This document shows, piece by piece, positions 37,384 to 37,640 of a stretch of 64,000 nucleotides of DNA (position 1 is the first letter of the stretch; each line of letters begins with the position of its first letter). A program made the translations under genes and the position numbers. Source of the DNA: Candidatus Falkowbacteria bacterium (GTDB lineage Bacteria > Patescibacteriota > Patescibacteriia > CAIXNZ01); NCBI GenBank assembly GCA_963774955.1, contig CAVZGV010000004.1, forward strand, positions 131,522-195,521, given 5' to 3'. The notes under the pieces are model-generated. The model was not told the origin of the DNA. It saw only the letters and a list, made by a program, of their open reading frames with translations, and made no database searches.

Positions 37384-37440
37384 AGCGGGTAACGGGAATT
37401 GAACCCGTATCTCCAGATTGCCTGCCCGCCGTACACTATA
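37384..37440 (-). other. 3' half of a second tRNA-Gly copy (anticodon-stem 3' strand, T-arm and acceptor 3' strand), preceded by a GC-rich extension tatagtgtacggcgggcaggc
   Basis: ...aatctggagatacgggttcaattcccgttacccgct matches the 3' 36 nt of the intact tRNA-Gly, with two substitutions. Confidence 0.6.
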
Positions 37441-37461
37441 AAAAAGGATACTCAACCAAAC

Positions 37462-37534
37462 AGCGGGTAACGGGAATCGAACCCGTATCTCCAGCTTGGA
37501 AGGCTAGCATAATAAACCATTATACTATACCCGC
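37462..37534 (-). tRNA. tRNA-Gly(TCC)
   Basis: gcgggta-ta-GTAT..aatggttt..ATTA; anticodon stem ctagc/gctgg with loop ctTCCaa; T-arm acggg-ttcgatt-cccgt; acceptor tacccgc plus discriminator t. No encoded CCA. Confidence 0.85.
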
Positions 37535-37587
37535 TGTTTGCTAAAGTATTTAATTTATAAAAAAAATCTGTGTACTATGGCAGGCGG

Positions 37588-37640
37588 GGAAGGCTAGCAT
37601 AATAAGCCATTATACTATACCCGCTCTTTAAGCAAGTTAA
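37588..37640 (-). other. 5' half of the second tRNA-Gly copy (acceptor 5' strand, D-arm, anticodon stem 5' strand and loop up to cttcc), followed by a GC-rich extension ccgcctgccatagtacacag plus T8
   Basis: gcgggtatagtataatggcttattatgctagccttcc is identical to the intact gene apart from one D-loop base. It then diverges into a sequence complementary to the extension of the 3' half. Confidence 0.6.

Follow-up and report, generated by a model that had tools for sequence, protein, structure and literature searches.

A transfer RNA gene for glycine, tRNA-Gly(UCC), is interrupted in its anticodon loop by an insertion of 168 nucleotides (nt) that itself contains a complete tRNA-Gly(UCC) gene. The nested unit lies on the minus strand of a 64,000-nucleotide piece of bacterial chromosome (the window; Candidatus Falkowbacteria bacterium, assembly GCA_963774955.1, contig CAVZGV010000004.1, positions 131,522 to 195,521) from the candidate phyla radiation (CPR), the closest relatives of which in public genomes are labelled Candidatus Parcubacteria. 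The arrangement is due to neither chance nor assembly error. We consider that it is probably, although by no wide measure, a non-autonomous, site-specific, GC-rich palindromic mobile element with a tRNA cargo that replaces the gene it disrupts. Its recurrence in distant relatives makes a small family of mobile DNA hairpins the most likely explanation; it is probably not a spliced intron.

Architecture of the nested locus

Read on the minus strand, positions 37200-37850 contain a resident tRNA-Gly(UCC) in two halves with an intact tRNA-Gly(UCC) between them. The 5′ half of this resident, or outer, copy (tRNA positions 1-35; 37589..37625, minus strand) shows 100% identity with the corresponding part of the uninterrupted gene in the closest relative (L001), and the BLAST alignment with L001 ends here. 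The 3′ half (tRNA positions 36/37-73; 37384..37420, minus strand) carries the change G39T, which breaks the 31-39 pair and leaves a C31×U39 mismatch. Base C36 of the outer copy may be either 37588, in which case the 5′ half spans 37625-37588 and ends in CTTCC, or 37420, without which the 3′ half is 37419-37384; this one-C ambiguity places the junction at 35/36 or 36/37. A sequence-only reading of the locus had put the interruption at the canonical intron position, which is 37/38. Its claim that the joined halves reconstitute a complete tRNA-Gly(UCC) is borne out by ARAGORN, which calls the 73-nt sequence joined in silico as such, and the two copies differ at three positions (a D-loop C/T, G39T and a T-loop A/G) rather than at about four.

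The insertion (37421..37588, minus strand) consists, in order, of a left end CCCGCCTGCCATAGTACAC, a spacer, the cargo tRNA, a second spacer and a right end GTGTACGGCGGGCAGG. Its limits rest on the orthologous site in two relatives that lack it (L001 and L011) and on homologous ends in four contigs that have it (L012/L013, L046 and L136); at 168 nt it is shorter than the roughly 180 nt first estimated. The extension 5′ of the inner tRNA reads CCGCCTGCC-ATA-GTACAC-AG and leads into a T8 run, and that on the 3′ side reads GTGTAC-GGCG-GGCAGG. The inner tRNA-Gly(UCC) (37462..37534, minus strand; ARAGORN 37461-37535; Rfam tRNA 67.7 bits) is intact, has no encoded CCA and is presumed to be a functional gene. 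When ARAGORN was run with its intron option, only inner genes were reported. Inverted repeats in the leaders and trailers lengthen the acceptor stems of both the outer and the inner tRNA (21 nt at 90% and 22 nt at 86% in a repeat search), and a 281-nt stretch folds as a nested rod (-114.9 kcal/mol, z = -9.8; 0/200 shuffles as good). On the minus-strand reading, all of the elements first described (the 5′ half, the extensions, the intact tRNA-Gly, the 3′ half and the inverted repeats) are therefore present.

The sole promoter-like site for the whole nested unit lies 5′ of the outer copy (37736..37764, minus strand). It is sigma-70-like and TG-extended (TTGAAA-17-TAAGAT), and the identical sequence stands upstream of the simple tRNA-Gly genes of L001 and L011. 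Split halves of the Nanoarchaeum type, one of the options raised earlier, find no support, as the halves lie 168 nt apart in one transcription unit behind this single, conserved promoter-like site. Directly downstream of the outer 3′ half is a degenerate remnant of an older junction between a right end and a 3′ half (37331..37363, minus strand), in which GGACAAG is followed by CAATCAGGAGATATAAGTTC..CCCGCT, with 17/20 identity to GGGCAGGCAATCTGGAGATA. The match spans the element/exon junction, 0/2000 shuffles reached its score, and it suggests an earlier round at the same locus.

The orthologous locus in related genomes

Relatives were collected through the Ro60/Rsr protein and through a kinase-like neighbour. 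They have a common gene order of tRNA-Ile/Phe/Pro, the kinase, an open reading frame (ORF) of 110 amino acids (aa), tRNA-Gly, a variable slot, a TrmB regulator, approximately 2 kb of non-coding DNA and Rsr. In L001 (Rsr 91% and kinase 82% identical), one uninterrupted tRNA-Gly occupies the syntenic position behind the same promoter. The alignment of the window with L001 halts in the anticodon loop (37588) and picks up at 37420, which gives the window 168 nt of inserted DNA at 35/36 or 36/37. In a second relative (L011; kinase 75% identical), the tRNA-Gly behind this promoter is likewise single and simple, and it is identical to the inner copy of the window (73/73). Two independently assembled contigs (L012 from JGI and L013 from ENA), with kinases that are identical to each other and 52% identical to that of the window, have the nested arrangement at the same site, with the homologous ends CCGCCTACCATAGTACAT ... 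ATGTATGGCGGGCAGG. In L012 and L013 the outer copy is interrupted by three more GC-rich hairpins, one behind position 26, one in the T loop and one at 65/66; in L012 it is identical to the inner copy, even where the segments between interruptions are only 9-11 nt long. The insertion is polymorphic among relatives, in which either a single simple gene or the nested structure is present and tandem pairs of tRNA-Gly genes are never seen. A metagenome scan with the kinase alignment found no match.

The arrangement also recurs in a second clade with a different genomic context. A metagenome pattern scan returned at least 120 matches, mostly chance matches in GC-rich genomes; among the matches listed, which did not include the contig of L012, a single real case was found (L046), and further examples probably exist beyond the matches listed. 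L046 has the ends CCGCCTGC... and ...GGCGGGCAGG at the same anticodon-loop site with a tRNA-Gly inside, and genes for a Nudix hydrolase and a sigma factor lie next to it. In L046 the outer tRNA-Gly differs in type from the inner one (56/72 identity). Relatives of the Nudix protein led to a 433-kb contig of Candidatus Paceibacterota (L136) and to five sister lineages (L138-L142); more distant Nudix neighbourhoods contained no tRNA-Gly. L136 has an inner tRNA of the L046 type, and the 3′ half of its outer copy carries two C×A mismatches in the anticodon stem and a 20-nt hairpin. This hairpin sits in the T loop after GTTC (TTC^CCCGCCTGCCGGTGGGCAGG^GATT), and at this unambiguous junction there is no target duplication. 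The simple tRNA-Gly of L138-L142 has, by eye, the sequence of the in-silico spliced outer copy of L046, the inner copy of which is of the other type; we therefore infer that the outer copy is the resident and that the inner copy is imported cargo.

These contigs also bear on whether the nested locus could be an assembly mis-join between tRNA repeats, which are 38 nt long at 95-97% identity. A short Logan contig seems to stop close to the inner tRNA. However, a mis-join could not create unique, mutually complementary ends, and the same architecture occurs in the independent JGI and ENA assemblies, on the 433-kb contig and in L046. We see no sign of a mis-join and find this explanation scarcely credible.

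Conserved ends and decaying outer copies

In every nested case, the insertion occupies the same site, has a tRNA-Gly inside and ends in variants of the consensus 5′ CCCGCCTRCC ... GGCGGGCAGG 3′. The total length ranges from 101 to 168 nt, and the spacers around the inner tRNA vary (53+41 nt in the window, 15+69 nt in L046 and only 13+17 nt, the whole of the non-tRNA sequence, in L136). Conservation of the ends is at the level of sequence, and every register in which they might pair is disrupted in one lineage; this is more readily explained by a site for recognition by a protein or in DNA than by an RNA helix. Of the four outer copies known, three have lesions, namely the C31×U39 mismatch in the window, the three extra hairpins in L012, and the two C×A mismatches and the hairpin in L136, and there are none in any inner or simple tRNA-Gly gene.

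Some of the same observations can be read in favour of a new kind of intron, in which the insertion and the hairpins that lack a cargo are cut from RNA by an endonuclease and rejoined by a ligase, so that the outer gene is also a functional tRNA-Gly. Every outer copy joined in silico is a valid tRNA-Gly(UCC), the insertions are all in loops or junctions and none is inside a helix, and the ends of the element are conserved. The outer copy of L046 is perfect, and that of L012 matches its inner copy even in the shortest segments. Position 35/36 is the preferred intron site in Patescibacteria tRNAs (PMC13011429). Sequence inspection also indicates that CUU(C)C of the anticodon loop can pair with GCAGG at the 3′ end of the insertion, which leaves the 3′ junction in a 3-nt bulge.

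Against splicing, an E-value scan of 35000-41000 with all Rfam families gave no match to a group I or group II intron or a self-cleaving ribozyme at E ≤ 1. That scan and a gathering-threshold scan of the window returned tRNA and rRNA matches only, with no intron, ribozyme or Y RNA, and neither matched the group I catalytic core (P3-P9, RF00028). Group I introns begin directly after U and end in G (PMC13011429), whereas the 5′ exon here ends in C (C35 or C36), and the last base of the insertion is G only in the 35/36 register. A proper bulge-helix-bulge motif (two 3-nt bulges and a 4-bp helix) cannot be drawn: inspection of the window, L012 and L046 yielded only the 3′ bulge (CAA), the minimum free energy fold has no such motif, and the 5′ junction lies within a continuous helix next to a C×C mismatch. 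The stem mismatches of the outer copies in L136 and the window also count against splicing, as does the L012 outer copy, which would require four separate excisions, one of them in the T loop; moreover, the same anticodon is already supplied by the inner gene. No EndA splicing endonuclease or RtcB-type ligase was found among the 25 of approximately 65 window ORFs scanned against Pfam. Splicing or a split tRNA is unlikely. Of the earlier suggestion of a tRNA gene with an intervening sequence that carries a tRNA gene, the intervening sequence stands; its site is not the canonical one, and splicing is without support: there is no intron or ribozyme match and no bulge-helix-bulge, the exon ends in C and the outer copies decay. 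We regard a new kind of intron as quite improbable. The broader claim, that CC...GGCAGG hairpins with or without a tRNA form a new bacterial class of tRNA intervening sequence, removed at the RNA level by a CPR endonuclease and ligase and leaving functional outer genes that include the four-fold interrupted L012 copy, is more doubtful still.

Related hairpins without cargo

The motif GGCGGGCAGG is present twice in the window, and its second copy is in a hairpin within a fragment of tRNA-Ile. This partial 5′ copy (tRNA positions 1-27; 39695..39753, minus strand) lies upstream of the intact tRNA-Ile and has a 29-nt cargo-less hairpin, CCGCCTACGCTAAAGCTTCGGCGGGCAGG, in its D loop at 39740-39712. 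A tRNA-Ile fragment with a GC-rich hairpin in the D loop occurs in the spacer between the 16S ribosomal RNA (rRNA) gene and tRNA-Ile of three genomes (window 39695-39753, minus; L001 585-640; L012 7127-7175). There is also a partial 3′ copy of tRNA-Pro (39261..39316, minus strand), which comprises the T arm, the 3′ strand of the acceptor stem and a trailer of 9 nt and carries in its T loop a double hairpin, CCGCCAGAGGCGG-AC-CCGCCTTCGGCGGGCAAG, that ends in GGCGGGCAAG. Cargo-less copies with the same ends occur only in redundant tRNA copies (tRNA-Ile, tRNA-Pro and the outer tRNA-Gly), always in loops or at junctions. The T-loop and anticodon-loop insertions follow (C/G)TTC, with GTTC^ in the T loop in two independent cases and CTTC^ in the anticodon loop. 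As in REP/REPIN systems, the window contains a family of repeated, short, GC-rich imperfect palindromes: CCGCC...GGCGG hairpins are enriched, with 10 matches on both strands (5 loci) compared with a shuffle mean of 1.15. Members homologous to the window hairpins were found in L001, L012, L046 and L136. Scans of viral contigs gave nothing, or two chance matches inside coding sequence without a tRNA.

Several further observations concern these spacers. In each of the three genomes, the tRNA-Ile fragment matches the tRNA-Ile of its own genome, including 2-5 leader bases, which suggests concerted evolution or repeated re-copying. A stretch downstream of tRNA-Ile that might have been a degenerate 3′ piece of an outer tRNA-Ile was dropped, as 776/2000 shuffles scored as well. 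L001 has a longer pseudo-tRNA-Pro (1295-1386) with homologous hairpins at its 5′ side. The tRNA-Phe leader of the window (39547-39602, minus) contains a hairpin, CCTCGGCACGTC...GACGTGCCGAGG, the second arm of which is the 5′ acceptor strand of tRNA-Phe, and the first arm therefore copies the tRNA-Phe 3′ end. Two intergenic palindromes of 47-48 nt (52535-52582 and 53468-53514) have the common start CCGCCGAG and the end GGCGG; they look REP-like and are distinct from the GGCAGG-tailed hairpins.

Partial tRNA duplicates are thus common around tRNA genes (the tRNA-Ile 5′ fragment, the tRNA-Pro 3′ fragment and the pseudo-tRNA-Pro of L001), and the nested unit might itself be a local nested duplication that arose without mobility, through template switching or faulty repair of a break, was then passed on vertically and was precisely lost several times, with the GC-rich hairpins as secondary colonisers or by-products. 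The near identity of the inner and outer copies in the window, and their identity in L012, are in line with such an origin, and synteny between the window and L012 allows common descent of the insertion. Set against this, at least three precise losses that restored an intact gene would be needed (in L001, in L011 and in the L138 group), the inner tRNA of L046 and L136 is of another type than the resident, which local duplication does not explain, and the same ends occur without cargo at other sites and in other tRNA genes. We judge local duplication to be unlikely.

A proposed course of events

Under the mobile-element reading that we favour, a resident single-copy tRNA-Gly(UCC) would have been struck in the anticodon loop right after CTTC (35/36). 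The incoming DNA, small and non-autonomous, would belong to a family of GC-rich palindromes specific to the lineage and would hold an entire tRNA-Gly(UCC) gene where the loop of the hairpin would otherwise be. The inner gene has no promoter-like site of its own and would therefore be transcribed from the resident promoter, in a single precursor. The inner tRNA would then be excised by RNase P together with a nuclease that processes tRNA 3′ ends, for example RNase Z, and would receive its CCA later, as in known tRNA processing. An insertion into the anticodon loop would be viable only because the cargo replaces the destroyed gene, and its imprecise loss would be lethal. The outer halves would be the disrupted resident gene, their likeness to tRNA preserved either by the short time since the event or by gene conversion with the inner copy, and would gather further hairpin insertions and stem mismatches over time. 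Of the options offered by the sequence-only reading, a scar of tandem tRNA-Gly genes hit by a small GC-rich insertion element comes closest to the evidence; the element is retained here, and the tandem genes give way to a single resident gene, the second tRNA being the cargo.

Movement would probably be of the single-strand HUH type, of the REP/RAYT, IS200/IS605 or IS91 kind. Ends that are conserved in sequence without covariation, no target duplication and short targets in tRNA loops point to such a mechanism, in which hairpin ends would suffice, a short target such as (C/G)TTC in tRNA-gene loops would be used without duplication, and adjacent DNA could be carried along. Junctions other than that in the T loop of L136 have an ambiguity of no more than 1-2 nt. 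A candidate for the trans-acting enzyme, on sequence grounds, is encoded directly after trmD (44579..45289, minus strand), where a 236-aa protein is a homologue of RAYT-like/IS200-like Y1 (HUH) transposases (Pfam Y1_Tnp 26.8 bits; cut-off 23). A 242-aa ORF beside trmD in L012, considered as a RAYT-like homologue, was rejected, as it is not homologous.

A number of observations weigh against this reading. The candidate enzyme scores 33.5 bits against NCBIfam REP_Tyr_transpos, below the cut-off of 80, and its gene is not flanked by hairpins of the element; the palindrome directly downstream is AT-rich and unrelated to the GGCAGG family. The motif GGCGGGCA[AG]G has only 3 copies in 64 kb, all of them tRNA-adjacent, which is a low copy number for a REP family, and the D-loop, position-26 and 65/66 insertions depart from the (C/G)TTC target. 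The outer copy of L046 is 100% intact, and this, together with the identical outer and inner copies of L012, could instead reflect selection on the outer copy. The patchy distribution could result from an old insertion and repeated precise loss.

Neighbouring genes and RNAs

In the window, a 16S rRNA gene (39994-41493, minus) is followed by tRNA-Ile, tRNA-Phe and tRNA-Pro. The variable slot after tRNA-Gly contains ORF138 in the window (36890..37306, minus strand), an 84-aa ORF in L011, nothing in L001 and a retron-type reverse transcriptase in L012/L013. ORF138, which has no Pfam or NCBIfam match, lies within a block of approximately 500 nt downstream of tRNA-Gly that is absent from L001. The reverse transcriptase stands directly 3′ of the nested tRNA-Gly (L012 10051-11277; L013 4293-5519; NCBIfam retron_St85_RT 104 bits, below the cut-off), and L012 also has an Avd-like 23S_rRNA_IVP protein between tRNA-Phe and tRNA-Pro (7504-7863). 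In several Paceibacterota contigs, a conserved tRNA with a CUA anticodon, called tRNA-Pyl by ARAGORN, adjoins tRNA-Gly (L046 430-502, minus; L136 1968-2041; L138 2742-2812) and could be an amber suppressor or point to codon reassignment; in L136 there is a second odd tRNA-like call beside it.

Given that tRNA genes are classic integration sites, the variable slot and the extra 3′-half remnant downstream of tRNA-Gly might be seen as pointing to a scar of integrase-mediated integration and excision of an island, with duplicated att sites. However, integration duplicates one part of the tRNA as direct repeats that flank the island and does not produce a whole tRNA between 5′ and 3′ halves, the insertion is only 101-168 nt long, and no integrase was found among the neighbouring genes scanned or listed with precomputed Pfam hits. 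An integration scar is therefore highly improbable.

The Ro60/Rsr gene (32395-34155, minus) lies 3.2 kb downstream of the nested tRNA on the same strand. Upstream of it is a 1.5-kb non-coding block (34156-35691, minus) that is 73-83% conserved with relatives and contains a structured RNA of approximately 290 nt, especially at 34310-34595, with 8 covarying pairs and closed by an invariant GCCUGCCAC/GUGGCAGGC helix. This RNA, which Rfam does not detect, carries GGGCCCGAACC, which resembles the Ro-binding GGUCCGA/GNCGAA motif, and is a candidate CPR Y RNA. It shares the GCCUGCC/GGCAGGC helix with the nested tRNA.

The nearness of Rsr and the tRNA-like domains of bacterial Y RNAs raised the idea, with which the shared helix agrees, that the nested locus makes a functional, unspliced composite RNA, in which an outer tRNA-like scaffold and the GCCUGCC/GGCAGGC helix would serve as a Y-RNA-like partner of Ro60/Rsr or as a scaffold for processing or protecting the inner tRNA. 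Bacterial Y RNAs typically lie no more than 4 kb from rsr (PMC4201824). The outer pieces that remain after excision of the inner tRNA would resemble a two-piece YrlA. The comparative evidence runs the other way. L001 and L011 keep Rsr and the upstream RNA together with a plain tRNA-Gly, and L046 and L136 have a nested tRNA with no Rsr within the 3-6 kb of sequence examined around it. YrlA is permuted, with the T arm before the D arm, and has a 5′ GNCGAAN0-1G motif, whereas in the nested locus the D arm precedes the T arm and the motif is absent from the ends; the nested region has no match to Rfam YrlA (RF02553). The permutation of YrlA, the absent motif and the plain tRNA-Gly beside Rsr in L001 and L011 led us to reject the Y RNA reading, and a functional composite RNA in general is very improbable.

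Implications

No prior description of nested tRNA genes, or of palindromes inserted into tRNA genes, was found in literature searches. A survey of tRNA introns in Patescibacteria started from group I matches (PMC13011429) and would therefore have missed the nested class. If the mobile-element reading is true, a miniature palindromic element is tolerated inside an essential single-copy tRNA gene by means of a replacement copy and a borrowed host promoter, which would be a previously unreported tactic for mobile DNA and would make the element hard to lose. It would also offer a DNA-level route by which tRNA genes become nested, split or intron-like with no splicing machinery involved, a point of relevance to the debate about their origin. 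For annotation, standard tRNA finders report the inner gene only and group-I-based surveys miss the whole class. Elements of 20-170 nt are suited to tests of HUH-type single-strand transposition in CPR bacteria. If, instead, the outer genes are spliced, bacteria would have protein-dependent, multi-intron tRNA splicing like that of Thermoproteales archaea, with one intron that delivers a second tRNA.

Comparison with known systems

The nested element resembles REP/REPIN elements, which are mobilised by RAYTs (REP-associated tyrosine transposases), and palindromic elements derived from IS200/IS605. Like these, the hairpins are short GC-rich imperfect palindromes in an AT-rich genome, are non-autonomous and are conserved only at their ends; there is no target duplication at the unambiguous L136 T-loop junction, and the window has a single RAYT-like Y1 gene. 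Unlike these, the copies sit inside the loops of tRNA genes rather than in extragenic space, are few in number and in one version carry an entire tRNA gene; repeats of the element do not border the RAYT-like gene, and no conserved GTAG-type 5′ tetranucleotide was identified. Rolling-circle elements of the IS91/Helitron type, which move by one-ended transposition, are also similar. The IS91 family makes no target duplication, targets GTTC/CTTG and rarely CTTC, has a subterminal palindrome near the cleavage site and captures adjacent DNA (PMC13181058), and the nested element resembles it in the palindrome, the capture of host DNA, the absence of duplication and, at the T-loop and anticodon-loop sites, the target. 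It differs in its length of 20-168 nt, in having two ends that pair with each other and in its D-loop, position-26 and 65/66 sites, which are off target; no Y2 HUH transposase was seen among the window ORFs scanned.

Among systems that affect tRNA genes, group I introns at 35/36 of Patescibacteria tRNA genes (PMC13011429) occur in the same phylum and the same part of the anticodon loop and are likewise missed by standard tRNA finders, whereas the element described here has no group I core (no Rfam match), follows C rather than U, consists mostly of tRNA in its 101-168 nt and shows no evidence of self-splicing. The split and multi-intron tRNAs of archaea (Nanoarchaeum, Caldivirga and Thermoproteales) also have tRNA halves with GC-rich complementary extensions, and the L012 outer copy is similarly interrupted several times at non-canonical positions; here, however, the host is a bacterium, there is a single transcription unit and no bulge-helix-bulge, the halves enclose a full copy of the same tRNA, and the outer copies decay. 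Islands and phages that integrate into tRNA genes and bring a replacement 3′ part provide a functional parallel, as they too disrupt a tRNA gene, restore its function with their own copy and leave displaced fragments as scars. They differ in that here a complete tRNA is supplied, inside the anticodon loop of the old gene, by a tiny element without an integrase.

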